DNA of 64,000 bases, taken from contig JAUZTB010000057.1 in assembly GCA_034780895.1 (NCBI GenBank), positions 16,909,712-16,973,711 of the forward strand, written 5' to 3'. Shown here in pieces: positions 6,201 to 56,800 of this stretch. Within the stretch, counting starts at the first letter, position 1, and each line of letters starts with the position of its first letter. The translations under genes were made by a program, and so were the position numbers. Source of the DNA: Rhynchobatus australiae. Its lineage: Eukaryota. The notes under the pieces are model-generated. The model saw only the letters and a program-made list of their open reading frames with translations. It did not search any database and was not told the origin of the DNA.

Positions 6201-9200
6201 AGTAAGGAATTAATTTGTTCAAGTCAGTGTAAGGCTTGAACATAAATTTTTCTCACTCAATGACAAGAATGCTAGCAAGCCCAGGGGGCATTTCAATCTT
6301 GACAAAAGGGTGATTTACCACACAGCCTCAAAATTCCTTTTTCCTCTTTCCAATTTTTCTGCTTTTCTCTCTTGAAGACTTCACTAGAATCACTAGTTTT
6401 AGCAGCCAGCCTTCTCTCATTTATACATGGGTCTTTATCAGAAAGAGATTGACCACAGGCTACTTGAGATCAGTTCCCCCAAAGAATAATTTAAGAATTT
6501 TAAGTTCATTCTCATGGGCTTGATAATTGTACAGTAGAATGCTATGTGAGTACAGCAGTGCCTGAAAGGATGGGAGAGGCAGAAACCCTCATCACATTGA
6601 TAAAATACTTAGATGTCTTCTTGAAAAGCTGTGNNNNNNNNNNNCTGGTCCAAATTCTGGAAGGTGGGCTTGGGTTGACCAGCTCCTTTCACACCAACTT
6701 GAACACATTGGGCAAAATGGTCTCATGTTGGAAGTTGTCCTTGATTCTAGTATTCACAGTGTCCACACAACACATCAGTAGGGTAAAACTAACCTGTCTC
6801 ACAATGGTCTAAACCCAGCTCACGTTCCCCATTAGTGGGTGAACAATCCAAAGCTTGGTGAATTTTGCTTCACAGTGATAGGAACACACACACACTTTCT
6901 ATCCAAAATCTTGGACAATGATCATAAATGTTCTTACACCATGGGCATTGTGAAATTTCCAAAAGATAGAACAGGCACCTGGCAGTTTCAGCCTAAGTGA
7001 CTGAATGCCAGTATGTATTGCATTTTGTGATGTTTTCTTTAAGAATGAGAATGTTCAGGGTTATGGAAGTCAGGACGTATTTAAAATCTGTCAATTTGTT
7101 TGAGACTATCAGATGAATCGAAACCCTCTCAAAAAGCTTTCCACACCTGTAGAATCAGACAATAATACCCTCATATTCCTGAGATCAGTTTTTTTTCATC
7201 TTAATCCCATTAAGGGCAGAGAATATTGCTTTCCATAATATCTTCTGACAAGACATGGTTGCACTCAATACCTCAGGAGCCACCACCACCAGGGAGCAGA
7301 ATGGCAAAAAAAAATCTGAGTAAAGTGCTAATATCAGCAAGAGGTTTCACAGAGGTCATCATCTACTGGGATTCCAAGGGAACATTTAAGAGTCCCTAGG
7401 CCTGAAACATTTGGAAGAATGTCAGTATTTTCAGATATCCTTCAATAACCATGTACCAGTCTGAAAAATAGTACCTTACAAATATCAGTACTAAAGTATA
7501 TAATTTAATTTTACTTTTCTTTGTATCCAGGTAACTATCATACATGAGCAGTTTTAACACCCACACTGCAACATTGCATTCCCTCTTTTCAGTCACATAA
7601 CATATTGCCAAGGTCTCGGTACTCTTTATCAATTTAACACTATATGCTCACATACCCTCTACCCTTTCAAAGGTGAGCAGCACATCACAGACATGCTCGG
7701 GATAGTCAGTAGTACATTGTACTGCTCGATGCAAAGCCTTCCTGCAGTGCTGGGGGTCACCATGAGCTCTGTAAGAGAATGACATGCAAATAAAAAATAC
7801 ATCAAATTGCTTCTTAACATACACAGGTGCAGATATAAAGGGGAACAATTATAGCACTTCTGATGGAATCCACAGATCCAATAATACTGAATTTGGTTCG
7901 AATACATGTTTTCCAATCTCAGAATTGTGATCCCTATCACAGTTCTGATATTCTATCCCTTTGGTGAGAATGATTTTTAACATGTCTTATTTTTAATAAC
8001 TCGTTCTTCATTCTACTTTATTCTTTATTAACCTTGATTGATCCCAAGCTATTTTATTTTATCTNNNNNNNNNNNNNNNNNNNNNNNNNNNNNNNNNNNN
8101 NNNNNNNNNNNNNNNNNNNNNNNNNNNNNNNNNNNNNNNNNNNNNNNNNNNNNNNNNNNNNNNNTATTTATTTTATCTCTACATGTTATCTGACTTTTAC
8201 TCTCATTTTTGAAAAATATGTTCTGTCTACTATCCCCAACTAACACGTCCAGCTACACCTCATCTCTTTTACTGGATTAGAATTTTTTCCAAGGTCCCCT
8301 TTATCCTTTCTGCAAGGTCTGGTTTTCACACAGTTCAGATGCAATAGCATTCAAAGGATGGACACCTGGACAGAATTGTGGAAGAATCCCAATGCCAGTG
8401 CACATCAGCAACAGCTGTATCAACTAATGTCTTCAGGAGAGGATGGAAATTAATTAAATCAAATAAAAATAAATTGCTGCTTGACTGGGCTACTATTCTT
8501 ACCGCTCCAAATTGAAATACTCCAGCCACATGTTGGCATATTTTGCATTTCCTTTGGTCATGATTCTATCCCAGAGTTCCCGAGCTTTCTGCATGTTTTT
8601 ACAAAGTCTTGCCTATAAAGAATTAAAAAAAGAGGCAAACAATAATCATTATACAGTTCAACTTCCAGTGATGTGGCAAAGTTGTTTCCCTTGGTGGGTG
8701 AGACCAGGACTAGAGGGAGTCTTAAAATTAGNNNNNNNNNNNNNNNNNNNNNNNNNNNNNNNNNNNNNNNNNNNNNNNNNNNNNNNNNNNNNNNNNNNNN
8801 NNNNNNNNNNNNNNNNNNNNNNNNNNNNNNNTACCCATTTAGAACAGAAATGAGAAGACATTTCTTTAGCCAGAGGGTTGTGGATTTATGGAATTTGTTG
8901 CCACATACAGCTGTGGAGGCCTGATCATTGGGGGTGTTTAAGGAGGAAATTGATGGGTATCTAATTAGTCAAGGTGTCAAGGGATATTGGGAAAAGGCTG
9001 GGAATTGGGGCTAGATGGGAATAGTTTAGCTCATGATGAGGTAGTGGAGCAGACCCGATGGGCCAAATGGCCTACTTCTCCTCCTTTGTCTTGTGATCTT
9101 ATGATCAAGCACATACTATAAACCCTCATCTCTAGTACTGTAGAGCAGCATGTCATTCTTAGCGCAGAATAGTTAATCTTATTATCAGGAATATATGATG

Positions 9201-21200: not shown

Positions 21201-24200
21201 CAACTATTTCGTTAGGAGATTTGGTACGTCACCAAAGGCTCTAACCAATTTCTACAGTTGCAAGGTGGAGAGCATCCTGACTGGTTGCATCACAGCCTGG
21301 TATGGAGAATCCAATGCACAGGATCGCAAGAGGCTGCAGAGGGTTGTAGACTCAGCCAGCTCCATCACGGACACAATCTCCTCACCCACCGTTGAGGACA
21401 TCTTCAAGAGGCAGTGACTCAAGAAGCTGGGGATTATCACTAAGGAACCTCACCATCTGGGACATGCCCTCTTCCTGTTACTACCATCAGGGAGGTGGTA
21501 CAGGAACCTGAAGACCCAAAATCAATGATTCAGGAACAACTCCGCCATCAGATTTCTGAACGGTCCATAAACCCATGAACACGACATCATTATTCCTTGT
21601 TTTTTCACTATTTATTTATTTTTGTAGTTTATATTAATTTTAGGTCTTTGCCACTTTACTGCTGCCACAAAACAACAGATTTCACATCATATGTCAGTGA
21701 TAACAAATCTGATCCTGATTTTAACTGCGAGGACAGGGGGGCCTCAGTGTAATGTGATATCTGAAACAGTTCTCGAACAAGACTTCCTGTTTCTGTCTGT
21801 GAAGTTACTGATCTGATCAGTGCAATGACTCTACTGGGCTGAACAGTGTAGTACTGCAGTATCAATCAGCTTCAGGTGTTTTCAAGTCCCAATTTATGGT
21901 AAAACTTTTTAAACACTTACCGCTCTTCTGCTTCTTTACAACTCGTTATAGGGTTCTTCCACAGAGTTATTGCTGAAAAGAGAAAATTGCTCAAGATTTA
22001 CTGGCAGTCTGAGGAAAAGGCTTAAAGCAGTGCCCAATTCTAACCAATCATAGCACATCCTGAAATCTTTTGTTTTATAAGCAGAGTTGTGTCAGCCAAT
22101 GAGTTAGAGGTGGGGCACAGAATATGACCATGCTCTCAACAATCAATTGTCTTATACTGTAAGTAATGTCAATTTACCCCAGTCTATTTAAACAGAACTT
22201 ATGACAGAAGCTACAGCAACGTTTTGTGATAAAAGAGGATAAATTCACCAGAGTCAATGTCAGTCACTTTTGCTCATCAGGTTTGATTGACAGGAAGCAA
22301 GAAGCAATCTTTCAGAGGAACCCAGCAGTTCTGCAGTATTTGTGGTGGTGGGGAGGAATTGTCAACATTTCAGGTTGAACATTGCCGAAACGTCGACAAT
22401 TCCTTTCCCCCCACACAGATGCTGCTCGACCCACTGTGTTCCTCCAGCAGATTGTTTTTTTTTGTTCCAGACTCCAGCATCTGCAGTTTCTTGCATCTTG
22501 CTTGATTGGGAAGTCACCCAGTCACCTATCATTGCACTGGCTGGGAATACTGTTGTCACCATATGCAAGCTCTAATAAATACTTGAGCATTTCAATGGTG
22601 CTGGAGATGACTCAAGGGCTATTTGTTCATCTTAAAGTGTTACCAATAATACATGGTGTAACTGTCTGGAATGGTATTAAAAATAAGCAAGGTATTATGA
22701 TTTTTTTTGTGAGGATAAGAACCATTCACAGTCTAACTGTACATCAAAATATGCTTCACACAGTATGAAGTCATTATTAACTCATTAGGGCAAAAGCTAA
22801 TATGTATTCAACTAAGGGTGGCCATTTCTATTATGCTATCTTCATTTCAAATAACAACATTTAAAAGACACTTGGACAGGTATATGGATAGGAAAGGTTT
22901 AGAGGGATATGGGCCAAATATAAGCAAATGGGATGAGCTTAGGTTGACATGGATGAGTTGGGCTGAAGGGCCTGTTTACATGCTGTGTTGCTCGATGCCT
23001 CTGACTCTATGTATGGAGGTGAAGCTTATTTGGAAGGGACCTAATTTGGACCCTCCACCCTATCTTTCCTCTATGATTGTTCACCTTCAAAAAGTTTGAG
23101 CCCAAATAGTAGGAACAGTTTGTTAACTGAAGTCCTTGCAAGCCTATGGGGAATAATTGCTGATGTTCTCTGACTAGACATGGATAAGAGAACTAATGGT
23201 CTTGCAGATATTTGCCAAACAGAGCCATCTGATGAGGCAAGGGTGTTATCTATAGTACAGAATGGAGCCGTTCATTATTTCTTGAAGCCGGTATTTATGC
23301 TCTTCTTGAGTTCCCTCCTATCCTTCCCTGTTTAACCATCAGTGAGTTTTCTACTCCCCCATGTACTTAACTAGCTTCCAATTAAAGTCATTCTTTTTTC
23401 TCCCCTCTCCTGTTGGGCAGAAGATACAAAAGCTCGATAACATATACCACCAGGCTCAAAGACAGCTTCTATCCTGCTGTTAACAGACTCTTGAATGGAC
23501 CTCTCTTATGCTAGAACAGTTGATCACCCAATCTACCTGATCGTGGCCCTTGTACTTTATTTGTCAACCATCACTACACTTTCTCTGTAACTGCAACACT
23601 ATATTCTGCATTTTTTTTCCTTTTTACTTTGATGTACTTAGTTATGGATGATCTGTTTGGATGGCAAGCAGACAAAAGCTTTTCACTGTATCTCAGTACA
23701 AATGACGATAATAAAGCAATACCAATACCAATCAAAACTGTTCATCTTAATACACACATTGCTAATGTGATTACTTAACAACCATCTCCCATTTATGTGG
23801 GAAAACTCTTATGCTTTATCCAAATACAAGGAGCCCTAGCTAAGGAATTCAATTGGAGGCGCACACCAAGGATCATCAGCTTGTGAGCTTGGCAGTCAAG
23901 AGAGGCCCTGAGGTGGGCCTCTCTTGACTGCCAAGAGAGGTCCACCTAAGGAAATGGAGCAGGTAAAGAGCATCTCTTTGGTCTGTGCACTATAGGCAAT
24001 GGGGAAATGCAAGGTAGTTCTGCATTCAATGTACAGGGACTCCCTGGGTTATGGATGACATGACTTATGCATATTTATGGATGAATATGCATAATCTGAC
24101 TTTATGCATATTCTCCCTTAAAATTTTAAAGCATTTTTCAAGACAAGGAAGTTTGTTACAGAAATGTAAACATCTTCAGGAGTTTTGGAATAGGGGTAGC

Positions 24201-27200
24201 AGCAAATTAGTTCCAAAGACAAAGACAACCAGTCTTCAAAAAAATCTGTTTACCTGTAACCTTCCTGCAGTAAGCAAACAGATACATTTTCTTTAAGAAC
24301 AGCTGCTGGTTCACAGTGGGAGGCCACTTAATAGATTAGCTTTGGAAACTGACAAGGCAAATCTCTTCACCTGATAGTTGCAACATACTTTATCAAACAA
24401 TGTAACATCCATTGATTCTTTACGGCCATCAAAACTAGTCATTGGATGTGGGACATTCTGATTTTGTACCACTGTAATTACATAGAAGACAATAAATAAA
24501 TGAATAATAAATGTCAATAAATAAATTCCATTTGTGTCCAAAGATGCTGCTTGACTCACTGAGCTTTTTTTGCTCCATATTCCAGCATCTGCAGTTTCTT
24601 GTGTCTCCAATAAATAAACATTCCTGTTCATCAACCCTCATTGAAATTGTTCATTTCTGACATGGAAAAAATTGGCTTATGGACAGTTCTCAGGAACAGA
24701 AGCCCTTACATAACCCAGGGACTGCCTGCACCCGAAGGAAATGATGGAGAAAAATTGCGTAAAATCCTACCTAGATTCTAGGTCAGAACCTTGGAAAGCA
24801 TATTCTCCGTAGTTCCTCCTCCATATCTGGAAGGTGACATTAAAATCAAGAATATTTTTAGTTATGCATTTCCTCATTAGTTTTCCATTAATATTTCTTA
24901 TGCGAGAATACCCAGCGAGATAACTTATACATTATGGTTTAAGAGTTGGGAACTGAACGAGCTTAAGTTTTTCAACCAGTACAGAAACATTGAGCTCCTT
25001 CTGTCCTCTAAACGTCTATGATTCTTTGAATGAATATTTAATCTACAAACCTACTGCTGTGTGGGAGAAATACCAGGGGGCAGAAATTTTTCTTTGGTTG
25101 ATAGCATTAAGCTGCACTAAGATATGGCTGCCTGTTGACTTCATAAGAAAAGAATAGATGGAGTGTGACTTATACTGTTGCACTTGTCAGCAACCAATAA
25201 TTAACTATCACCCACTGGTTTCCTCCTTTTCAGTACATTTCCCTTTTTATGGAACACACACATACGATGAATTGTCATGGATCTCTGGACCAGTGAGCCC
25301 TTACATGCGTTGAGAATGGATCGGAATATTGCTAGTTACAACAAGCAACCATGTGTAGCTGATTAAGACAATGCAAAGGAGTCAGTGCTTCGTAGAAGTC
25401 GAGGTGTATTACATAAGTGATCCAAGTTTTGGACTGGTGAGTCCACTTGTGGGGAAAGAATATCACCATTTTGCAAGGTATTACCCTTGCAGAGAGCTGT
25501 TATCCCAAGGAAACACTGGGCAATCAGAACTGAGAGCTGGAGAAGCTGCTTCGACAGGAAAGGAATGAAGAAATTAGATATCAGGAAAAACCGGCCTCTT
25601 TGGAGTTNNNNNNNNNNNNNNNNNNNNNNNNNNNNNNNNNNNNNNNNNNNNNNNNNNNNNNNNNNNNNNNNNNNNNNNNNNNNNNNNNNNNNNNNNNNNN
25701 NNNNNNNGTTTGATTATTTTGTATCAATTATATGTTAAAACAGAAATGTATTTTCTTTTGTAATACATTTTGAACACACATTTACAATTCAGAATTTAAA
25801 AACTAAAATAACAGAGGTTCAATCCATACCAGGGCTTCTTCAAAGGGTTTGCGCTTTTCCATTTGCTGCAAGGCCTTCTTGTACAATTGTACCACTGATT
25901 CATTAGGCACCTCATCAGCCCATGCCTCATATTCAGCATATGTGGATTCCATGTCTATTCCAAACATACACAGCCAGGATTAAGCAAGGATGAAATAAAC
26001 ATAGCTAATGCCTCTACACTTAGCAGTGGAATCTAAAATGTTCTATTTGCAAAGATGCTAAAACTCTAGAAACAAAATTTACAGGTACTTAAAAGTTAAA
26101 AAAAAATTATTCATTTTCATGGACACAATGAGGTGGACAATTTCTTTTCCAAAATAGCCACCACAGGCACAACAAACTGAATCACCTTCTTGTGCTGTCT
26201 GCCTCTGATTTAATAAAATAAAACAGATGCATTAATTTAGAATAACTAATTTGCATTTTACTGAACCTCTTTCGATTATTAAGGCACAACAATCTAGGAC
26301 CCAGCCAGATGCATAGACAACACTTCAGCACTACAGCTAAAAAGATCAATGAAGTTCTTTGCAGAGCTCTAGTAATATGAATGCTTTATTATGGCAGCAA
26401 AATAAAATACAAATGGTCAGGACTGCCTTTTACTGGCAGTTACAGTACCTGGCAGTCTTCATGGAATGGTAGACCTATAGGATGCAAGATTTTATAGCCT
26501 AGGTTGCAGGAGCTTGATTTTAAACAAAGCCAACTCATTACAGGAGGATAGGGCAGCACACTAATTATGCCATTCATGAAAGGTGGGAATACAGATGGCA
26601 AAAGATTAGTTAGTTTTTTTTAACCTCTGATAATCAATTTGAAGATTAAACATTAGGGAGACTGTACTTACACGTTTCACATTGTATGTTGGAAGCAGAA
26701 TCCTCTTTTCTCATCTTTGCTCATATTTTTGAAGGATGGCATAGTGACACAGCAGTTAGCTCACAGCTACCCTTCAATTCTGACCTCCAAGCTTGCACAT
26801 CCTCCTTGTGAGCATGTGGGCCTCCATCAGGTGCTCCAGTTTCCTCACACATCCTAATGACATTTTGGTAGGTTAATTGGCTACTGATAATTACCTACAT
26901 TTACTAGCACTAAGGGATAAATGGTGTAGGGAGTTGATGGACATATGAAAGGTTATGGGGCTGGTCTCTTTCTGTATTATAGTAAACAAGGTTGAGAGCT
27001 ATAGTTGTCTGTATGACAGTGGAGATCATCAGTCTCTTGTGTGTGAGCTACATTCAGATGGGTCTTTCTGAATTACATCAGCCATGGTTCTCATGCTCTT
27101 TCAAATTTTATTCAGAATATCGAAATTCATGCTGTGATCTGATCTATATTCTCTTTATGACAAACAGGATGGGATTGTGAATTGTGAGAAGGATACAAAA

Positions 27201-30200
27201 AAGTTTCAAGGGAACAGCAAGTGGGCAAAAACATGCTTGATGCGCTAATAATATGGATAAATACAATGTTATCCCCTTCAATAGGAAAAGCAACNNNNNN
27301 NNNNNNNNNNNNNNNNNNNNNNNNNNNNNNNNNNNNNNNNNNNNNNNNNNNNNNNNNNNNNNNNNNNNNNNNNNNNNNNNNNNNNNNNNNNNNNCAAGGC
27401 AGCATATTATTTAAATTGTGCTTGTTTGGGAAGATATGCAAACAGACTTGGTGCTCAGTTACTAAAAGCAATACACGTACGGCAAGCAGTTAAGTAGGAT
27501 TGAGTACAGGAGCAAGGATGTTTTGCTGCAATTGTGCAGGGCCTTGCTGAGACCACACTTGGAATAGTCGGTGCAAGTTTCAGTCGCTTTCCCGAAGAAA
27601 AAGAAATTATTTGCCATTAAGGAATGCAACCAAGGTTCACCAGACAATACTTCCCCTGGCTGGGGGATCTAGAACAAGGAGTCACAGTCCCAGGTTACAG
27701 GGCAGAAGATCTAGGGTTGAGAAGAAATGTCTTCATTCAGCAAGCTGTGGGAAGAAGAATTTGCTTCCACAGATGGCTAGAGCGGACAAGTTGCTAATTA
27801 TATTTAAGAAGTGGATGGATAAATTTCTAGATGCAAAAGAAATCAAGAGTTATGATGAGTGGGAATATGGTATTGAGATTCATGATCAACCATGATCATT
27901 TTGAATGGAGGACCAGGAGGGCCAAATAGTCCACTACTGCTCCTATTTTATAAGTTGCTGAAATTTAAATTCATGTTCCAAATATGAAACATTTATAACT
28001 GCCTATCATGTAGGCACTCTACACAAAGCAAGTTCTGCCTGATGCACATTTCCCAAGGATGCACATTTATCCATATGTAAACTAAAAGCACTTTACCAAG
28101 CAAAGGGACAGCCAGCTGCCTCTTGAAGAGTGCATGTACTCGGTCAATTTGTGCGTTCATCATTTCCTGCTGTTCTGGAGCCAAAATGGTGCCAGGTAAG
28201 GGCTGTCAGAGAAAAAAAATTCATATAATCGAACTGACAATTACTGAATTTAAATATGAGAAATTTAATTGAACATTCCAGAATACTCCAGTCCTTAATC
28301 ATTTCGAATACCAATAAGTTATCTGAAATTTTACTTAAAATGGTAATGACATTTCAGAATTTGACAGATTCAGAAGATTGCGCACTCTACCTGTGACATA
28401 TGGTCCATTCAAAGCCATAATCAATGCTCTTTCCTTAAAAGAAAAAGTAATCATGCTAAAACACTGTTTTAGCATGAATCCCCTTGACCTTATGCAGATA
28501 AAGGCAAGTATGAACAGGATGAAACATCACAGGATTATCCGCAAATTTCAGTAACAATCATCAATCTAAAGCTCAACTATTATTGCTCATTTTAATATTG
28601 TTCACTCTAAATCCACAAGTTTACATCAACTGTGCATTGCACTGGAAACATAAGGACAAACATCCAATCACTACTGTGTCCATACTTCCATTTAAAAAGT
28701 CCTATTTTCTGAGATTGGCCAAGTCTTCAGTGTGGATGATGGGCAGCAAGTTTGCTAATGCCTAGACAAAATTCTACTCCCATTTCTTCACTAAAGGAAA
28801 ATTAAACACAACTATCTAGCTGATAAAATTAATGAAACAATCGATCAACTATTGTGAAATCAAGACTGAATTAATGCCTTAAACCAGAGAACACTATGTC
28901 ATCCATGAAAATTGGGTTCATGTCTCATGCATGGATTTCAAGTATCTTTTTACCAGCTACCGAACACAAATTAACCAATAGTTTGGCACTCATTTNNNGT
29001 GTTTGGGCTGGACTGACATCACACCCACCAAAAGGCGCTCTGAGCAACGTGCATATGGTGGAGGAAGATGAGGTATGAGGTTAAACAGGCATGAAATGAC
29101 TAAGAAGAAGCTAAAACAGAACTTGCCATTCCATATATTCTGCATTACTAGCTAATTACTTTTAGCTGGTTCGCGTCTACCTCCATGAAAAAGAACATGT
29201 AAACAGCTTCTGATGTATTAATCTTCAGTTATATTTGCTTACCTGTAGAGTTCCTAAAATAGCATTTTCAAATTCTCTAAAGGCCTCCCAGATTGCTAGT
29301 CCTTTTGTCATATGTAATCCAACAGCAGTTAAGGCTCGATCAAATATCCCACGAGCTCGCTCGATACCACCCTGCAAGCCAATCCCTCCAATAGAGTACT
29401 GTGCATATTCCAGCCATATCTCAGGACCTGTATTTATTAATAGTAATGTATATTAAAACAGACCAAGGAATAGCATATGCATTTTTATAACCAAGTCATG
29501 GTAAATACTAGCCATTTACAGCAAAGGAATTATTCCATTAAAACTCAATTCACATATAAATTCTGGCTTCTTGCTTGCATGTGGGTAGAATGTCCCCTTC
29601 AGACTGAGCACTGTTTTTGACTCCAAAACATCACATTGGTAGTAAAACATTCCCATGGAACAAAGTGCGGTCTTTTGTGACAGACCCGACAATCTCTTCA
29701 CTACTGACTCTACTGTGGAACAATGTCCCCATATATGTCACACAGCTCCTAAAATTATGTTGTGGGCTAATTATTCAAAAAAGCTTCATCTGCTTTTAGT
29801 AGCAGGACGATTTAAAACATGCTAACACTACAGAAAGGAACTGTAGAGAGAGCACTAAACTTCTGTGCACTGATATTCTGTGATATTATTTCAGAACATA
29901 AGTCATCACTTATGCAAACTCATCATAAGCAAACTCATCACCAAACTCTCAGACCTGGGACTCAACACCTCCCTTTACAACTGGATCCTTGACTTCCTGA
30001 CCAACAGACCGCAATCAGCAAGGATAGGGAGCAACACCTCTAGCACGATTATTCTCAACACTGGTGTCCCAGAAGGCTGAATCTTCAGCCCCCTACTCTG
30101 CTCCCTATACACTCATGAATACNNNNNNNNNNNNNNNNNNNNNNNNNNNNNNNNNNNNNNNNNNNNNNNNNNNNNNNNNNNNNNNNNNNNNNNNNNNNNN

Positions 30201-33200
30201 NNNNNNNNNNNNNNNNNNNNNNGATGCCTTTGTATATGATTTCAGTCAGAATTTAGTAAGTTCTTCATGGAAAAGTTTAAAATGCCTAGGAAGTCTTTTT
30301 AAATTTTCCATCTCCTTTCAATTGTCACACTTTGTAACGACAGATAAACAAGAACAGAATTCCTCATTTATGTACCTTAAAGTGCATAAATAAATGTAAT
30401 TGTAGTATTATTTTTACACCATTACAGTCATTTCTTCTTTTGCCAACAGCGAGACTCTGTTCTGAGTGAACCAGCGATTCAGGTACGGCGGAAAAGCAAA
30501 GGCAAGCAGATCTGGTCACTGGAGAAACTGGAAAACCGACTCATTGATATGCGCGAGCTTTACCAGGAATGGAAAGACTGTGACGAAGACAATCCTGTAA
30601 GTGAAAGATTTGTACTTGTATTACTCGGGACTGTGGAGATACACAGAACCAAAGGAGGGCACTGCAGTTCTTGTAGGGTTTCCCAGTGTTCAAAAGATGC
30701 TACACACGAATCAGCTCTTACATCCTTCTGCTGCTTTTGGTTGTATTAGAATGTCCATGGCATTATTAGTATTGTGGCTATGTTTGTGGATTAGTAACCC
30801 AGAAACCTGGACTAATTTATCAGAGACATGTTCAGATCCTACTGTGGAGTTAGGGAATTTAATTAGTTAATTAAAGAGAAAGAACGAACAAAAAGTAATG
30901 GTGACCTTGAAACCACTGGACTATCATAAAAATCCATCTGATGCATTTATGGGTGGAATTCTGCCATTCGTTTGTGCAACTCTGGACCCAGAGCAATACA
31001 GCGGACTTGTTAAAAGCTACCACTTCCTTGAGAGTAAAAAGGGTGGACTGTAAATACTGGCTTTGTGAGTGCCTCTCAGTGTCAGCAAAATTTCCCTCGA
31101 TGTCAGCAAAACAAAAGAGCCAGTCGTTGACTTCAGAAACAGGGCTCCTGTTTACATTACTGCTGAGGTGGAGATGGTTGAGAGTTTCAAGTTCCTAGGT
31201 GTAAACATCACCAATAGCTTGTCCTGGTCCAACCATGTAGATGCCATGGCCAGGAAAGCACACTTGCACTTTCTACCTCCTCAGTAGGCTAAGGAAATTC
31301 AGCATGTCTGCATTGACCCTCACCAATTTTTATAGATGCACCACAGAAAGCATCCTATCTGGATGCATCACGGCTTGGTATGGCAACTGCTCTGCCCAAG
31401 ACTGCAAGAAACTGCAGAGAGTTGTGGACGCAGCTCAGCACATCACAGAAACCAGCCTCCCCTCCATGGATTCTGTCTATACTTCTCGCTGCCTTGGTAA
31501 AGCAGCCAGTATAATCAAAGATCCCACCCACACTGGATATTCTCTCTTCTCCCCTCTCCTGTTGGGCAGAATATACAAAAAGCTGCAAGCACGTACCACA
31601 AGGCTCAGGAACAGCTTCTTTCCCACTATTATAAGACGATTGAATGGTTCCCTCGTATGAAAAGATGGACTCTTGACCTCACAATCTACCTCGTTATTTT
31701 ATGACCTTGCACCTTATTGACTACCTGCACTGCACTTTCTCTGCAGCTGTGACACTTTACTCTGCATTCTGTGTTGTTTTACCCTGTACTACCTCAATGC
31801 ACTGTGTAATGAATCGATTTGTATGTACAGTATGCAAGACAAGTTTTTCACTGTACATGTGGCAATAGTATTCCAATTCCTTAGTGTTTATACATAGTTG
31901 TTCTGCAATGTCCATTACACGTGGGAGTCTCTTCAGTTCTGCATGCTGTTTTAATGGAATATAACCATCATGACTTCACAAAATAAGAAATAGTGTTAAA
32001 AAGCATGATAATCATTGAGAATTCATTTATAGAGATGCCTATACAGCTTTTATAACTAAAGTTAGTCTCAATTATCTGAAGATTTCCTGTATCGGTAATT
32101 GCAGGTTCTGCCATTTGTCAAAAACAAATGAGTAACAAAGTGAGTAATGGAGAACATGATTGTCTCAACATATAGGACAGATTCTAATACAGAAAACTAA
32201 ATCATGCTACTGACACAGTGACATTACTCCCAGTTATTTATCTGCTCTAAACAGAATGGACATCTCATTTCCCAGTTAATAAGCACATAGTTTTAAAATT
32301 AGGTTTATTCAACAGCCAAAAGTCATTTTCACGCAGTCTAACTTTAGCTTTAAATACAAAGCTATATTGTGGCTAGAACTTAGCTAAACTAACACAATTT
32401 TAGCAACCCTAAAATCCCTTCCCTTCTCCACTCAGATAAATCTCTGTTTGGCCAACAAGCTGCGATCTAACTTAAAGAAAGCAGAGAGAGTGTTTTGACT
32501 TACTAAGACATATAAGGAAACCATTTGCCCCCCTCAAGTTCATACCGGCCCCCAGCCCAGCAATCCCATTATTCCCAGTCTTCCTCTCCTATTTTTCCGT
32601 AACCCCTGAAACTATTCCCCCTCACCATCAGGTCGCCTTTGATTCTTTTGCCTCTTACTTACATTAAAGGGCAATTTACAATAGTCAGTTAACTTATCAG
32701 CACATCTTTGGAACGTGAGAGGAAACTGGAGTACCTGGAAACCCAAGCGGTAATGAGGAGCACATACAAACTCCACAGAGAGAGCATGACATCAGGATTT
32801 AAACCCTGGAGCACTAGCTACTGCGCTACCATGCTAACAGGTTGATCAGAGGGACTTATGATTGCTCTTTCCTGTGAATTGTGGATGGAGCTAAAATGTA
32901 GCAAATAAAGCAACTCACAAATATAATCTTTGATGGCCGTCTCAAACAGTTCATAAACTTTCTCCCTGTCATGTGGTTCTTCTGCCATTCGAATCTCATC
33001 TTTCAACCAGTCCAGCCAAAGCTCTGCAAAGAACAATCACATTCACTTACTTTCTCAATATTCCCAATACAGCAAAGCCCAATCTTCGCAAAATAAGTTA
33101 TTCATAATTATGTGGGTGGCATTTGACTACATTAGGTTAACATCAAAAACAGATAAAAATTACAATTACAAAGAAGATTCACAGACACACAATCCAAAAA

Positions 33201-36200
33201 AACAGATCACAGACTACTGACGAACAGTTAAAACTACTCCAGCAACTCCATAAAAGTTGGTTGATTACAACTTCTGAGCACCAAGCTGGTTTACAAATGT
33301 GCTACAAAATCTGGTCCACTTTAAAAGGTCACAAGGCCCAATCTTTCAATTTGTTTGCAATTATAACCTTACCTTCAGTAAGTGGAAAAAGCTCACTCAT
33401 CTTCTGTCGAGCGCACTGCAATTTCACCAGCTCTCCCTCCTGACGTAGCAATTTAATTAAATCAACATGACAGTTGTAATCATAGGCACTGATGGAAAGC
33501 TAAAAAAAAGCACAAAAAACCATTACCTCTTTGCCAAGATACCAGCTAGTCTCCTAATGATTATTGACATGCGTATAATTTTATTTAACAGTGATTTGTT
33601 TAATTTAATTTATTTTATTTAACAGTGCTAACACATGATTAGGAAGGACCTATGTAAATTGCATGAACTTCAAAATAATTGTGGTTAGTTGACAAAACAG
33701 GCAAAATTACAGAAAGGTAATATTTATTTGCTATTACTTGGACTAATTTGCAAAAGTCAGTAGAGAGGGCACCTAGGGACCCTGCCAAATGGCCGAAAAG
33801 TAAGCCAGATACCCCAGGAACTGCAGAGTTGACGTCCTTCTGAAATGCAGAGTTAGTGGATAACACCATCAAGTTCATTGCAAAAAGTAGCCTCGCATCA
33901 CAAAATCTGCAGTACTGTAATTTAAGCAGAGCACTAGTGCTGACCCCACTGAAGTTAGTCTACCCCAAGTATGACAATGAAGTCCCTTGCAGACCTCTTT
34001 ATCCAAGCTAAGCTACCAAAAACGATTTATTTCCAACTGAATCACATAGAAGCCAAACAGGCAAGACACAAATATTCATGTTCACTATCTTCACTACCCA
34101 CTACACACACCAAGTAGGTTTCTGGTGGCACTCGTTCGCTAAAAATTTCTGTTCTGCCAAATATTCAAGAAAGCCATTAGAGGAAAAATGAAAGGGGGAA
34201 TCATTAGCAGTGTACAAAATAACATGCATTTTAGACAACGTCAAGAATGGCATTATCTCCTTGATCTTCAATATTATAATTACACTTAAAAAGAAATTTA
34301 GTCATTTAATGTTGTACCCTCTTAACTGCATTCTGAAATGCACAATTTAACTTCCTGACCAAAAATCAATTAAACCTGATCACATCCATTTAATTAATAA
34401 CTCAGGACTATTTGACTTTAAGATAATAATCCTGTGCGTGCAAAATAAATTACGTCATGAGAAAACTCCATGTCTTTTTAAACACTTCATTCATATGCCC
34501 AAAACATTTTATTNNNNNNNNNNNNNNNNNNNNNNNNNNNNNNNNNNNNNNNNNNNNNNNNNNNNNNNNNNNNNNNNNNNNNNNNNNNNNNNNNNNNNNN
34601 NNNNNNNNNNNNNNNNNNNNNNNNNNNNNNNNNNNNNNNNNNNNNNNNNNNNNNNNNNNNNNNNNNNNNNNNNNNNNNNNNNNNNNNNNNNNNNNNNNNN
34701 NNNNNNNNNNNNNNNNNNNNNNNNNNNNNNNNNNNNNNNNNNNNNNNNNNNNNNNNNNNNNNNNNNNNNNNNNNNNNNNNNNNNNNNNNNNNNNNNNNNN
34801 NNNNNNNNNNNNNNNNNNNNNNNNNNNNNNNNNNNNNNNNNNNNNNNNNNNNNNNNNNNNNNNNNNNNNNNNNNNNNNNNNNNNNNNNNNNNNNNNNNNN
34901 NNNNNNNNNNNNNNNNNNNNNNNNNNNNNNNNNNNNNNNNNNNNNNNNNNNNNNNNNNNNNNNNNNNNNNNNNNNNNNNNNNNNNNNNNNNNNNNNNNNN
35001 NNNNNNNNNNNNNNNNNNNNNNNNNNNNNNNNNNNNNNNNNNNNNNNNNNNNNNNNNNNNNNNNNNNNNNNNNNNNNNNNNNNNNNNNNNNNNNNNNNNN
35101 NNNNNNNNNNNNNNNNNNNNNNNNNNNNNNNNNNNNNNNNNNNNNNNNNNNNNNNNNNNNNNNNNNNNNNNNNNNNNNNNNNNNNNNNNNNNNNNNNNNN
35201 NNNATTGCACCATTATTACTACTCTTAAAGCATTATATCAGAGATGCACAGGGATACTGCTGCATTTCCAAGCTTTGATTTTCTTTAAACTGAGGATCAA
35301 GCCGTAACAAATGATCAGAGAATATTATTGTGCTTTGAGATGATTCCTTCTATTTGTTTATGATGCTTGGGATTGGTTTATTATTGCCACTTGTATCGAG
35401 TTACAGTGAAAACCTTGTCTCTCATACCGTTCGTACACATCATTACACAGTGCACGGCTTGATCCCCCTGGCACGCAGCTAGAAGTTCTGCCCTACTCTT
35501 TCAAAGAAAGGTACTTGTGTCCGCGGGTGGATTGTGTTCCCTCTCTAGTGAAGCCCACAGCAACGGGCTCTCCTTTTTGTTCAGGGCTCTGTGGCTGACC
35601 CTTCAGAGAAACCACTCAGGGGAACGCCCCGGGTGTCTGGGCTCCTGACACACTCTGCGCTTCATTCCCCTGCTGCGGGGGCTGCGCGGAGGAGCTGCGG
35701 GTGGGGACCGGGGGTGGCCGGTGGGTTGGGGGGGGCGACAAAATTAAACCGAGAGATGAACAAAATTACACCCTGTCCCTTCGCAGTGTCCCACACCCGG
35801 ACCCTCGCTGGGGGACGTCCCCCGCACCCGGACCCTCGCTGGGGGACGTCCCACACACCCGGACCCTCACTGGGGGACGTCCCCCGCACCCGGACCCTCA
35901 CTGGGGGACGGGTCCCACACCCGGACCCTCACTGGGGGACGGGTCCCACACCCGGACCCTCACTGGGAGACGGGTCCCNNNNNNNNNNNNNNNNNNNNNN
36001 NNNNNNNNNNNNNNNNNNNNNNNNNNNNNNNNNNNNNNNNNNNNNNNNNNNNNNNNNNNNNNNNNNNNNNNNNNNNNNGGGGGGGGGGGGGGCCGGCGCC
36101 GGGGGGCCCCCGGCGGGGACCGGGGTTTAAACCCCGCGGGCTCCGGCCTCCCTCCCGCCCGCCGTGCGGCCGCTGCCCCGGGCCCACGTCGCACCTGCTC

Positions 36201-37259: not shown

Positions 37260-38420
37260 ATACAGTTCTTTTGTTGCCTGCATACAGCTTCAGCGCTTCT
37301 CTTAGTACAGGACTTTTGAATTTGCTATTTTGCAGCACTCAGTCATGGATGACACCTTGCTCAGGAATACCAGTGAACTTCAGGCAGGTCAATGGATGTC
37401 TTTCACGGCATTGATGGTTTCCCAGCAATAATTGGTATTTGCTTCAGAATTATTTTCCTTCTGCCAGCCTCTTTGCTCCATTTTAAAGGAGACATCACCA
37501 TTACTCTATGCATCCTCTAGGTGTCTCTTACTTCTTTGTACATTGGTACCACTAGATTTGTGGGCTTTGCCTTCCTTGCCCTGCTTCTGAGTCACTTTCA
37601 ATTTCCCCTGCAGCCTCTGGACTGGTTTGGAGGTGGTTAGGGATGTTTGTACCATACTTCAGTTAGCTGTCTTGTTCTGTTTTCTTCTTCCTTCTTTTCT
37701 TTCTCCTTTTCCATTACTTGGGGCTCCTCATTTTGTTTAACAGTGGAGGCAGGAACCTTGCTTTCTATTGGAACCGCTGTTGCTCTCCGTTCCTGCATTT
37801 CTTCTCATTTCACTTGCCTTGTCAAAGCTGTGTTTTTGGTTTGGGCAGGTTTTGTAAAGGTGGCCAGCCTTGTCACACAGGTTGCAGCATTCAGCTCCTT
37901 GGTAGTCAAGTGTTTGGTGCCAATGTCACTTTGGGAGAAATTGCTTCGTGATTTGCCACAGGAAAACCATGCAGCTGTAACATATGTCAATGGAAAAACA
38001 AAGACTAGTGGAATACATCACTATCCTTCTCTGCCCTCAGCCTATCCATATTGCATGCATATCCTTGGTATCTCTGGTTTTCTCTGAGCAACGTGAAGAC
38101 ATCTAGGTCAGAGATATGCAGATTGAATGGATAGACAACAACCATTCATTCTTTTTTTTCCCTGGTAGTAGAAGACAGGCTCGACTCTCAGCGGAAGCAA
38201 GGGTACTTCCTTACAATTGTCCCCAAATGATTTGTGTATCTTCATGCAGCAATCCATTTTCAAAAAGTTTTCAAAATAACCACAACGAGAGAAATCTTGC
38301 AGCAAAAAGTTCTCATCTGGTCTGAAGCCACATGCTCCAAACAACACATTCTTTGTGAAGATTCCTCACTTTCAAGGTTCTTCAGGAATTCATAGTGTAC
38401 AATACGCTCTGGTGGAATAA
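37260..38420 (-). mobile_element. Degenerate L1/Tx1-clade ORF1 (ZCCHC3-like) fossil
   Basis: Intact CCHC knuckle CNLCDKAGHLYKTC at 37886-37845. Upstream lie a CGKS knuckle remnant and an LFGACGF.PDE.F.LQDF...EPVF segment; downstream a Glu/Lys-rich tail. Stops and frameshifts present. Confidence 0.65.
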
Positions 38421-38769: not shown

Positions 38770-39130
38770 CTGCCGAAGCGCGCGCAATCCCTGGCGGGGT
38801 TTCTAAGGCAACCGCCGCGGTGACGTCACGGGCGGGAGGCGCGGCCTGTGGGTGATTGACGCCTGACGTATGGTAAACGGGACAGGTGACGCAGTTGCTG
38901 TTGTGCGGTGGGTTGCGGAATGATGGCGTTGAGCAGTGGTCCGGTCCGGTGGTTGCTGCTGCGCCTGGCGGTGAACACTCGAGCCCTTCTCTCGGCTGCT
39001 TACCACAAGAAGGTGGGGGACGGGCGCGGGGTGGAATTTTTTATCTTGTGTGTGGCAGCGGGTCAGTGGCGACCAAATGCAGGGGGTGATTACACGGGTG
39101 GGGGGTGGTGGTGAGGGCGCTGGGGAGAGT
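38770..39130 (+). promoter_or_regulatory. ISCU CpG-island promoter
   Basis: GCGCGCGC near 38778; perfect CRE palindrome GTGACGTCAC at 38820-38829; GC box GGGCGG at 38830; further TGACG half-sites at 38857, 38864 and 38887. Confidence 0.75.
38920..39012 (+). CDS. ISCU: ISCU exon 1 (presequence ...YHKK)
   Basis: Tandem ATGs at 38920 and 38923, donor AAG|GTGGGG. Confidence 0.88.
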
Positions 39131-42100
39131 GGGAGCCCGTTTTCTGGATCNNNNNNNNNNNNNNNNNNNNNNNNNNNNNNNNNNNNNNNNNNNNNNNNNN
39201 NNNNNNNNNNNNNNNNNNNNNNNNNNNNNGAGGGGGGAGGGTGGGTGGGTGGGGGTGGTGGGGGGGAGGTGAGGTGGTGGTGGCGGCATTAAATGTTGGT
39301 GCTGCCCCTGACTTGAATGTTTGCAGCATCTTGTGTAACGAGGTAAAGCCGGGAGGGAGATGGATGGGTTGATGGGGAAGGTGGAAAGTAAGGACATAAA
39401 TCTAACTGGGGTTAGGGTGACGATTGACTGATGTCTGTGGAGCATGGTCAGCTTAACGGCAAGAGGTCAGAAGTGCTGAGTCATGGGTCATTGAATCGTC
39501 AGACCTTGATGACTGAGCAGTAAATGGAGCTTTGAGACGTGGATATGTACTTGCAGTTTTGTATTAAATTGTACTTTACTGCCTTAAAAATGAGATTGAG
39601 GATATTAGTAACTTTATATCTAGTAGAGAGATAAGAATGATGTTAATATAACTTAGAATAACTCAGTTGTGTTTTATTTGCATATAATCAGGGAATTTTT
39701 TTAAACAAAGTTGCTTGTTTACCTATTAGTTTGCCACTTTTATGTCATGTGTAGGAACTATAAGTGATTAGAAGCTGAAAAAGAAAATTGATGTAGTGGT
39801 GGAATTTTTTGTAATTGATTTTCCCTTAACTTGCAGGTCGTGGACCATTATGAGAATCCCAGAAATGTTGGTTCCTTGGATAAGAATTCAAAAAATGTTG
39901 GGACTGGCCTTGTTGGTGCCCCAGCTTGTGGTGATGTCATGAAGCTACAGGTAAACTATTAACATGCAGAATGTAGTGACTTACTTGTGAATTTCTTAAC
40001 TATGAATTGGTCCTGACTTTAACATAGTTTATGGTTGAGGTATAATAGTTGACCTCTGTTAAATAACCCCAAAGTCCTGCTTGTGATTTGCTACCCAAAG
40101 AATTCTACTGCAAAGTATACAATGGGTATAAATAAAATCTTCATTTAAATAGTCCAGATAGACCTAGACAGTTACTGCTGGTATTTGAAGACCAGTGTCA
40201 AATGGCATTTCAAGCTATTTGTGCAACTGATGTGTTCTGCAGTGCCATCTAATCTAATGTGACTGACCTGGAGTTCCTTCCATTTTTTAAAAAAAAAGTC
40301 ATTTCCTAATCTAGTTACTGCACATGGTTTTTTTTTCTAGCCAGTGGTCAGGCTTTGAAGGATTTTTGGAGTAGTTCTCCAAGCCATTAAACTGACTTGA
40401 GAAAAGATGTGATGAGGGGAGACTGCAGTATGTCAAAGAACTTTACAGGCTATTTCCCAGCCAACTCCCTTGCATTGCACATTAGAATATTTGCAGCAAT
40501 TACTCCAAGTTAATATCCCCCCCCAAAAAAAATTGTGACTGAAATGTTACTCAGTGAAAGCAAAGATTTCAAATCATTTTCATTTACTTTCTCTTCCAAG
40601 ATTGAAGTGGATGATGATGGAAAAATTATTGATGCGAGATTTAAAACATTTGGATGTGGATCAGCAATTGCTTCCAGCTCTCTGGCAACAGAATGGGTGA
40701 AAGGAAAAACGGTAAAGATACCATTTTCAAAATATAACTCTTGACATTGTTTGTCTGGAATACTTCAACAAAAATATATTGGAAGGAATGTTTGCTTAAA
40801 ATAAAACACCATTAAAGCACCAAAGTTGATCACTGAGATTTCTAAATGGCCACAAAATTTCTTTCCTTCCAACAGAATATTTACATGAGCAGATACCCTC
40901 TTTTCCTCCCTCTTGAACTTTATCCAGCAACCCATGCAAATATGTTGTATGATTGAGGCTTTGCACCATTGAATTCATGGTTGTATGGTAGGAAGAGGGA
41001 CTACATAAAATTGAATACAATATAGAAAAACAGCTGTATCATAGAAGGTAAACTATCTAATTTTCAGGAATTGCTATCGATCAGAAACTTCCAAAATTTG
41101 GAAACTTCCAAAAACTAATAGTAACAAACGGAAAAGGTGCTTCTGTGGCACTGATGTTAGCCAGAGATATTTTATTCTGATGGAAATTTGCATTCTGGTA
41201 GATTGAGACTAATCTTGGCGTATATGCCATTGCTCTGTACCTTGGGTGGCATGGTATTATATCAAATATCAGATGTTTCTGCTGCAGGTTTTAAAATTTG
41301 TATAGCAATATTGTTTGTGCCTCATTATTATGCCTGGTTTGAAGAAATTGTCATTGGCTTTCACTTAATGACAGGTGGATGAAGCCTCGAAGATCAAGAA
41401 TACAGATATTGCGAAGGAGCTCTGCCTTCCTCCAGTCAAACTGCATTGCTCAAGTAAGTCTGGGTTTATTTCATAGTGATGGAAAGCACAGCAAACTTAC
41501 CAACTAATTTGAATTTCTGTAGACTTCTTGGGGGGGGGGGGGGAGGAGGAGCAATCTTATTGAGATATGCAGGTTCTGAGAGAAGTTATAAGGGTAAATG
41601 CTGTTTTTCTTTCCCCCTCTTAACTGCATACTTTTGAGAGCATAATCTCAGATCAATCATTTAGGAATGAGACAAAAATCTGCAGACCTCATTAAACTTA
41701 AGCCTTCAAGATGGCAGCACATCTTTGGGCTGTGATTTGATTCATTTTTGGACTTGGTATATGCCATTCAGACAGGAAATAGACTTCAGGCAATAATCAG
41801 CCATGATCTTCAAGACTGAGCATAAACATTTGAGTATTTTCACTACATCTCTTGGCATTCTCATGATTTTTGTCAAAACACTAGTAAAGGATCTTACTTT
41901 CCATGTTCCACCAGTACAGACTTTGCCATAAAGCTATGCAGACCACAAACAAATATAGGAAAAGGTTAAATGAAGTATTATCAGTACAAACCTGAAAGGG
42001 CGATTGGGACGTTTTATCATTGGGTGCAAGATTGAAACATTGGGATCAACTGGAAACTAATGCAGATGCTGAAAAGTCCTTAATAGTTATAAGAAATTCA

Positions 42101-43624: not shown

Positions 43625-44040
43625 AAGGTCAAGTTTATTGTCATCTGCTCAAGTACCTATATGCAGAGGTGCAATGAAAATGCTTAGCTGATAGATTCAC
43701 AGGAAAATAAGTTATACATAATTTTTACAAGAAAGAACACAAATAGAGCAAAAAAAAATTCCATTTTAGTGCACAGTGGTCCTTGTGTTGCTATACTGAG
43801 CTAGTGATTAGGGTTGTGCAACTTCATTCATGGTTGAATGGAAGTAGCTATTTCTGAACCTGGTAGTGCAGGACTTGAGGCTTCTGGACGTCCTTGATGG
43901 TAGCTGTGAGAAGATGGCATAGCCCAGATAGTGAGGATGGACACTGCCATCTTGAGGCAGTGCCTTGTGTAGATATTTCTTATGGTGGGAGGGATGTGCT
44001 GGTGATACATTGGGCTGAGTCCACTGCACAGGATCTTGTT
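43625..44040 (-). mobile_element. Rex1/Babar LINE 3' fragment
   Basis: HYLGYAIFSQLPSRTSRSLKSCTTRFRNSYF. Confidence 0.7.
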
Positions 44041-53885: not shown

Positions 53886-56800
53886 CTGTTCAAAAGAAAA
53901 AAAATGAAAACAATAATACAAGATTAATTATCACAGAATATTTAACTATCAGGAAATCTAAACATTTAGTATTTTTTAAAAAAACAGAAAAGCAAGTTAT
54001 TCATTAAATTGAGAGAAATTAGGAGTTGACATTCAAAGAGACCAAGGTATGTTTCTACACGTGACACTGAAAGCGAACACACAGGTGCTGAGAGTGATTA
54101 AGATAGCAAATGGCAGGTCAGTCTTTATTATGAGAAAGTTTGATTAGAGAAGTAATTGTTTAGGACCTTGCTGAGACTGCGGCTGGATATATTTTGTACA
54201 GTTTTGGTCTCCTTACCCAAGAAAGGAAATACTTGTGATTGAGGGAGGGCAGCAAAGACGAACCAGATTGGTTACAGGAATGGGAGACATTGAATAGACT
54301 GGGACTGTGTTCCTTAGAGTTTAGAAGGATGAGGGATCTCATTGACACTTACAAAATTCTTAAAGGGCTTGACAAGCTAATGGCAGAACAGTTCCCCTGA
54401 CAGAAGAGTCTAGTTTGGGAATAAGAGGTAGGTTGTGCAGGGCTGAGAGGAGGAGAAACTTCTTAACTCAGAAGATGGTGAACCTTTGGAATTCTCTACC
54501 CTGGATGGTTATGGAAGTTCAATCGTTTGTTCATTTGAGATTACTGGGCATTAAGTGAATCAAAAGTATGGAGCTAGTTCTGGAAAGTGGCACTGAGGTA
54601 GAAGACATCAACCCTGATCGTGATGGATGGAGAAGCAGGCTCCAAGGACTAGATGACCAACAACTGCTCCTATTTGTTACACTCTATAATTTTACTGGAG
54701 CATTACTATATTCAACAAAAGAACTTCTGAGTTGTGCAAACATTTATCTCGGCACTAGGCAACATGAGATAAAAGCATAATAGTCTTCTCACATTTATTA
54801 TCTTTCTTCCAGGCAGCGAGCAACACATCGTGGCTGTCCACCTTTTCAGAAACCAGAGCTCTCAGCAGTGCATCTGTCCTTGGCTGAAGCCTTTGAAATA
54901 GCAGGATTTTAGTTACTGGTCTTGCACACAAATCAAAAAATGACACCAAGTAATAAAATCTATTTAATTTCCCCACTCCACCCAATGCCACCTGCACCCC
55001 AAATAAGTATCTCAATAATATTGCTAAATTAATTTTTATGGCATAACTCATAGGCTTTGGCAATTATTTAAACAACAACAATACCTCCAAAGAAACAAAG
55101 TTCTACGAAGTGTAACACACCGACACGTCCCCACCAGGGGGTGCGGCACGCTGACATTCCTCTCCCCCCCTCCTCCCCCCACCGCCGCCTGGTGTCAGGG
55201 TCATTGTGCCCAGTACCAGACAATAGAAACAGACACTGCTTCAANNNNNNNNNNNNNNNNNNNNNNNNNNNNNNNNNNNNNNNNNNNNNNNNNNNNNNNN
55301 NNNNNNNNNNNNNNNNNNNNNNNNNNNNNNNNNNNNNNNNNNNNCTTCAAGTTCTTTCACGGGAAGAGATTGCCCAACAAACAGAAAAAGATTCAAGGAC
55401 TGCTCAAAGTAGAGGAGCAGCATCTGGAATGGTATCAAGAATTTTGAGACCATGCATCAGGAGCACAGAAGCTCTGTGAGAGTGGTGGAACACCTCACAA
55501 ACTACCCACCCACCTTACCTCCTGCCTCATCAATGGGGGAATCCAAAGCTCCCACATGGGCACCATTAGCTACCCTTGACTCAAAACCACAGTGGAAGCA
55601 AGTCATCTTCAATCCCGAGGAAATGTCCAAGACGAGAAGACAGTAACTACTTGATCCAGTACACCGGCATAGCAGCCTTGATCCAATTCCAAATGGGCGC
55701 ATATGCACTTTTATCAAATTCACTAAAAAGTCTCTCTGTCTTTAGCACTAGAGATTAGTAATTGAAATGGTGAGAGTTTATCAAATACTACTCTAACATT
55801 GTCATTTCATGCTTAGTTGTTGCTGAAAATGTACAAACTTACTTGGCCCAGGACTTTAACATAGTCGATGGACTGGAAAGTAGACACTTGGTGTACGAGG
55901 CAAATTTTTTAATTACCTTCAATGTAGAGTGGAAAATAAATAAACAATTAGTTATAAAGCAGGTAATGCATGATTAATTGTCTTCCATCTTTACTTAACT
56001 CAAGAGATCAGCAATTTTTCACCTTCCTAACCAAGTAGAACTCAACCATTACTCTCTCTCCTTCACCCTGTCAATTAATTTTTTTAGGTCACTGGTACGC
56101 AAGGATCTGCAGGTTGGTGACCTTATTAAGAATCAGCCAATCTCACTGAGCTCAGCCTTTAGAAGAGGCATAAATGCTTCCATCATTCCTGTGGAGAAAT
56201 ACCCGCTCTAAAACTGGCAGCTTGATGCATCCTTACAGCTTTCCTTACCACCCATATTCCTGGATATCTTTGTTCACTTTGCCATTTCATTTCGAGTTCT
56301 GTTCCTCCATCACTGGGATGTCACCACATATTTTGCAGAATGAAACTAAGATCCACTTGATTGGACAGCAGTACAAACACCCTGCTCTTTACATTGCTTT
56401 TTGAAAGTTCAGTATTAATTAGAAGTTTATGAGATAATTCTGTTAGAAATCCAGCTATATGCTTTCCTTTACATAATTGATTTCTAGAACAATTTAAAAA
56501 AAAATTTACAACCAATGATATTCACTGGTTCGAACTTCCATTGATGTAATTGGTTTAAGAATATATTACTGCAATTCAGTCAAATTGCACTCACCATTTT
56601 AAATACTTCAAGCTGCACGAAACCATGCATTGTGAGTTGTGCCCCAGGTTTCCTCATTTATGTTAAATTAGTTGACCTCAGCTGAAATGGCAGAACTGGC
56701 TTCTGCCATTCAGTAAAAGGAGGAAAAAAAACAAGTGCGGATATCTAATAAGGAAACAGTTGCGTGTGATGACGCTCCATGCAAATGTACACCACACTGC

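Follow-up and report, generated by a model that had tools for sequence, protein, structure and literature searches.

The window analysed here (the whole stretch of 64,000 nucleotides, from a draft assembly of the ray Rhynchobatus australiae) contains an intact exon of KIF13B within intron 3 of SART3. The location of this exon is probably an artefact. It is best explained, as we judge with considerable confidence, by a chimeric assembly join that connects two LINE copies, one from a KIF13B intron and one from SART3. The features of the locus are as follows.

29243 to 29425, minus strand: SART3 exon 4 (tblastn: SART3 of Mobula and Hemitrygon matches at 100% identity along 61 aa).
29911 to 30122, plus strand: left LINE piece, reverse transcriptase (RT) codons ∼ 665–730 of P0269, with one stop codon.
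30123 to 30222, no strand: 100-N placeholder gap, the N count of which does not give its true size.
30223 to 30449, plus strand: intron-like 5′ flank of the KIF13B exon, 30% GC, with pyrimidine tract and CAG acceptor; the first 227 nt of the N-free contig 30223–34513.
30450 to 30596, plus strand: intact KIF13B exon, phase 0-0, residues 729–777 of Heterodontus KIF13B, start of the Pfam KIF1B domain.
30597 to 31069, plus strand: intron-like 3′ flank of the KIF13B exon, beginning with GTAAGT; its base skew is opposite in sign to that of SART3 introns (a weak signal).
31070 to 31879, plus strand: right LINE piece, RT codons ∼ 776–966 of P0269, 3′ UTR and short tail.
32902 to 33024, minus strand: SART3 exon 3, which shares its N-free contig with the KIF13B exon.

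Identity and borders of the exon

The exon comprises 147 nt without a stop codon, encodes 49 amino acids and is bordered by an acceptor (...TTTGCCAACAG, with a pyrimidine tract and CAG upstream) and a GTAAGT donor. Translation and splice sites agree with an earlier note on this DNA, which had described an open exon of this length with a good acceptor and the same donor. That note had also assigned the peptide to KIF13B, and we arrive at the same assignment: it matches PDB 5b64_B with E 5e-24, and its best matches are named KIF13B, with Heterodontus (98% identity) and Rhinoraja, Narcine and Rhincodon (96%) at the top of the best 120 of 2183 protein matches. The name KIF13A occurs on none of these 120 and, judged by its sequence, the peptide is closer to KIF13B than to other kinesin-3 proteins. 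Short read-through fragments (< 300 aa) of other vertebrates lose their likeness to KIF13B at both exon borders, in 14 of 14 cases, and the loci L001 and L002 carry AG and GT at the same two places; because of these common borders we regard 30450–30596 as a canonical KIF13B exon. A metagenome scan with the exon returned three loci with 81–86% protein identity, the DNA similarity being confined to the exon itself. Two further origins were considered and rejected, a chance open frame on account of the protein match (E 1e-22) and a processed retrocopy because both intron flanks and the splice sites are retained around the exon.

A tblastn search with five full-length KIF13B proteins found no other KIF13B exon in the 64-kb window. 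The exon is the single match and has no KIF13B neighbours in cis, which bears out the earlier observation that no second kinesin exon is present. A looser search to E 100 (P0002 results only) likewise gave no further KIF13B exon in the window.

The SART3 setting

Exons 1–15 of SART3 lie on the minus strand of the window, from 36353 down to 3096; after those of Mobula and Hemitrygon, the next matches of exon 4 are from Narcine and Amblyraja, which places the host among the batoids. The placement of the KIF13B exon in SART3 intron 3, as the earlier note had it, is confirmed by the flanking exon 3 (33024–32902) and exon 4 (29425–29243), both on the minus strand. Being on the plus strand, the KIF13B exon is antisense to SART3. 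Since it faces away from SART3, the exon could not be spliced into that gene even if it were truly inserted, and for the same reason a functional effect on SART3 is unlikely. In Heterodontus, KIF13B is on a 120.9 Mb record and SART3 on an 83.7 Mb record; the corresponding records in Amblyraja are of 83.6 Mb and 38.2 Mb. The two genes are therefore not neighbours in either species. The Narcine SART3 is on a 0.25-Mb record and is uninformative for linkage.

Other genes were seen around SART3. A NifU_N exon (Pfam) is located at 40514–40741 on the plus strand, with a likely first exon at ∼ 38940–39030 (plus strand) in a CpG-rich stretch; we take these to belong to ISCU, presumably arranged head to head with SART3. 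Helicase exons at 54758–55063 and 59239–59505, both on the minus strand and with DHX37_C and OB_NTP_bind domains (Pfam), presumably represent the 3′ part of DHX37. We assume that ISCU and DHX37 are near SART3 in other vertebrates as well. Open frames at 37640–38090 (minus strand), located between the CpG-rich stretch and SART3 exon 1, give a weak zinc-knuckle match (E 6e-4, below the curated cut-off) and may be what is left of a retroelement, or else a retrocopy in decay. A GC-rich tandem repeat in SART3 intron 1 (35788–35978) enters a 100-N gap that is followed by a G run.

State of preservation of the exon

The exon contains 8 CpGs, with an observed/expected ratio of 0.93 compared with 0.39 in SART3 exons, in keeping with the many retained CpGs reported earlier, and all 13 CpG positions at which decay would alter the protein are unchanged. 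The accompanying claim of 'no decay' was nearly right: one of 48 conserved positions is in a rare state (G16S; serine is found in 2 of 120 relatives). KIF13B of stingrays or devil rays is absent among the protein matches listed; G16S may be typical of the lineage. Our initial test of exon decay relied mostly on bird homologues and was uninformative (7/49 versus 17/133, p = 0.81); it was replaced by counts of rare-state changes. By these counts the exon is less altered than the left LINE piece (1/48 versus 9/42, p = 0.005) but shows no significant difference from the right one (p = 0.42–0.66, with 0.66 for 1/48 versus 5/89), and against both pieces pooled p is 0.07. To judge from these positions, the exon is no less intact than one in use. 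Since its intactness and that of the right LINE piece differ non-significantly, the two could have been inserted together.

The LINE pieces on either side

Compared with the RT protein P0269, the two LINE pieces are collinear, as the earlier note had stated, and they share a strand. Its further statement that the second piece resumes where the first breaks off did not hold. Residues ∼ 731–775 of P0269 (∼ 45 codons, including FADD at 742) are missing between them, or are hidden in the gap. The left piece opens with a 15-nt tandem duplication (29911–29925 / 29926–29940) and the 5′ junction of the right piece carries a 16-nt duplication (31075–31090 / 31096–31111). Such duplications occur in 58 of 18,954 random 60-nt windows; there are six in the 64 kb, two of them at LINE starts. 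In zebrafish, ZfL2-2 elements are described as having extra letters at their 5′ junctions (PMC4245944). The duplications at both starts may likewise be natural LINE 5′ junctions. The pieces also differ in decay. Rare-state changes in conserved columns amount to 9/42 on the left (one of them the stop codon) and 5/89 on the right (p = 0.012). Decay is uneven within the right piece, the RT of which has two deletions and one frameshift: these fall in its first part, together with 3/27 rare-state changes, and 2/62 changes follow. A comparison of all three parts gave p = 0.013, by a test picked after inspection of the data. Because of the ∼ 45 missing codons, the separate 5′ duplications and the unequal decay, the sequences appear to favour two separate LINE insertions over one split element. 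On the simplest reading, one LINE starts in SART3 intron 3 and another starts ∼ 475 nt behind the KIF13B exon. These findings, together with the antisense orientation of the exon, weaken the earlier proposal that ∼ 0.9 kb of KIF13B was captured into one LINE as raw material for exon shuffling; otherwise the observations of the note largely hold.

The LINE had been called Rex1. In favour of this label, relatives of both pieces carry PF00078 and PF09004, a pairing that we take to be a mark of Rex1; the name itself is on 0 of the 60 protein matches listed for the pieces, and our continued use of it is an assumption. Pfam did not recognize the LINE pieces themselves. Both begin inside the RT, and no AP endonuclease region is present. 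The same family makes up ∼ 4% of the window, where four more decayed copies were seen (21205–21564, 23377–23700, 43841–44038 and 62596–63419); the closest in-window copy to the right piece is 70% identical to it.

The DNA behind the right LINE piece bears on one reading of the locus, in which a larger part of KIF13B was truly duplicated into SART3 intron 3 at an older date and the right LINE arrived afterwards. The 8 nt at 31075 and those that follow the LINE tail, at 31880, agree in 7/8 letters, resembling a target-site duplication. If the match were real, the DNA behind the LINE would be continuous with the flank of the exon, as an older duplication predicts. A match of this quality was, however, equalled in 413 of 2702 random zones (15%). 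The base skew behind the LINE is −0.067, compared with a mean of −0.051 (sd 0.064, 39 windows) in SART3 introns and with +0.022 and +0.055 in the exon flanks; by this weak signal the DNA resembles SART3 introns more than the flanks of the exon. An old, unused copy would in addition be expected to lose CpGs and residues, and we consider an older duplication very improbable indeed.

Gaps in the draft assembly

The window contains 18 N gaps, which divide it into 19 N-free pieces of 567–7817 nt. Overlapping flanks were found at three of eight gaps of exactly 100 N (33, 15 and 6 nt) and at 0 of 10 gaps of other sizes; the 100-N gaps are placeholders. It follows that the 100 N at 30123–30222, which the earlier note had correctly placed just before the exon, say nothing about the true distance there. 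At this gap the two flanks show no overlap. The KIF13B piece begins exactly at the contig start (30223) behind it, and the contig on its other side ends in the upstream part of the same LINE family on the same strand. N-free sequence links the exon to SART3 DNA solely through the right LINE piece.

Elsewhere, 33 nt in front of a 100-N gap recur behind it with one mismatch (58818–58983), as overlapping alleles would. Two other 100-N gaps are adjoined by 8832–8980 and 27150–27540, which seem, from their appearance, to resemble CR1-type LINE ends.

Origin of the arrangement

We propose that KIF13B has a 5′-truncated LINE copy ∼ 475 nt behind the exon, and that SART3 intron 3 has a copy of its own from 29911. 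The assembler, moving leftwards from SART3 exon 3, would have switched from one LINE copy to another at a word common to both, run on for 0.85 kb into KIF13B and stopped; scaffolding would then have set 100 N between that contig and its true SART3 neighbour. The switch may have taken place within the LINE or else in a different repeat closer to exon 3. A stretch at ∼ 32.5–32.8 kb is a second possible crossing point; we take it to resemble a common shark and ray SINE. The foreign piece is at the end of a contig and is joined through a repeat, as expected of a chimeric contig. A misjoin explains the arrangement with no coincidence and accounts for the exon looking like a working one. Against it, no N interrupts the sequence between the exon and SART3 exon 3, the LINE included. 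A long exact word common to two LINE copies is moreover an assumption, because the right LINE piece is decayed and shares only 70% identity with its nearest in-window copy. The earlier note had suggested a chimeric join through near-identical LINE copies; the join fits best, but near identity of the copies is not evident, since the right piece has a frameshift and two deletions. The 6 Pfam matches from 447 of the 466 open frames (≥ 48 aa; the scan omitted 19 frames within or next to stretches already assigned to the LINE or to SART3) revealed no further misplaced gene, so misjoins are not demonstrably common here.

A recent, real insertion of the KIF13B piece is possible, if unlikely. A Rex1-type LINE would then have very recently moved the intact exon and both its flanks into the SART3 intron of this ray, probably from another chromosome, by homology-driven repair or read-through retrotransposition; we give such an event a minor share of the probability. 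In the first of these routes a break in the SART3 LINE copy would have been repaired by invasion of a similar LINE copy in the KIF13B intron, with at least 0.85 kb of flank and exon copied before rejoining, by gap-filling or a one-sided template switch. This DNA-level route predicts the same anatomy, with a homologous right join and the other join in the gap, and a recent segment present in two copies would be likely to break a short-read assembly here too. Gap-filling capture is described for animal DNA transposons in PMC8277862. According to that source, donors are biased towards nearby sites on the same chromosome, whereas KIF13B and SART3 are on different records in two of the two species with large records for both genes. 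The event would also have to be recent, the exon being almost unchanged, and is likely to be much rarer than a misjoin. On balance we regard it as rather improbable.

The second route is RNA-mediated (5′ transduction). An unspliced KIF13B transcript ending in an intronic LINE, or a template switch from LINE RNA to KIF13B pre-mRNA, would have been reverse transcribed and inserted as one unit. The exon and the right LINE are on the same strand with the exon upstream, as this requires, and the state of the exon is compatible with that of the less decayed 3′ part of the LINE (2/62 changes). The unit would, however, have to land by chance beside a same-strand, collinear piece of the same family, the 3′ part of which is unseen; the right LINE piece has two deletions and a frameshift where the exon has none; and the outer flanks have no word of > 5 nt in common, the left end of the unit lying in the gap. 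We consider this route decidedly improbable. Both insertion mechanisms are already known from other elements.

If the chimeric join is correct, the locus is a warning only: the KIF13B model of the draft may miss an exon, and orphan exons beside 100-N gaps in the draft should not be taken as biology. A real insertion would catch, at a young stage, the dispersal of an exon by a fish-type LINE in a cartilaginous fish. A literature search, mostly confined to papers available without subscription, found none joining Rex1, Babar and elasmobranch; two papers name KIF13B and SART3 jointly and, to judge from their listing entries, are unrelated to the arrangement in the window.

Comparison with known systems

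The exon shares 96–98% peptide identity, equal borders and equal phases with KIF13B of cartilaginous fish (PDB 5b64 chain B), from which it differs by the single change G16S. At L001 and L002 further KIF13B exons are present within ∼ 3 kb, whereas the exon in the window stands alone. The LINE pieces resemble Rex1/Babar elements in having a 5′-truncated RT region, a 3′ UTR and a short tail, and PMC6274825 describes loss of the endonuclease region by truncation in that group. The pieces in the window are without the endonuclease part, and their assignment to Rex1 is a putative one. With gap-filling capture by Pack-TIR elements (PMC8277862), the locus has in common that host sequence lies between two parts of one transposon family; here, in contrast, a LINE takes the place of the TIR element, the two parts appear to have been inserted separately, and the donor is probably on another chromosome.

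The closest likeness to the chimeric join that we favour is found in short-read assemblies, as described in 10.1101/2020.05.22.110833. Those of one hummingbird had ∼ 5,000–8,000 mis-joins, false duplications may pass as exon duplications, and repeats make up 54% of the thorny skate genome. The join in the window is, in contrast to the published ones, a proposed join; it shares with them an intact foreign exon, a contig end, a gap, a link through a repeat and the setting of a repeat-rich batoid genome.
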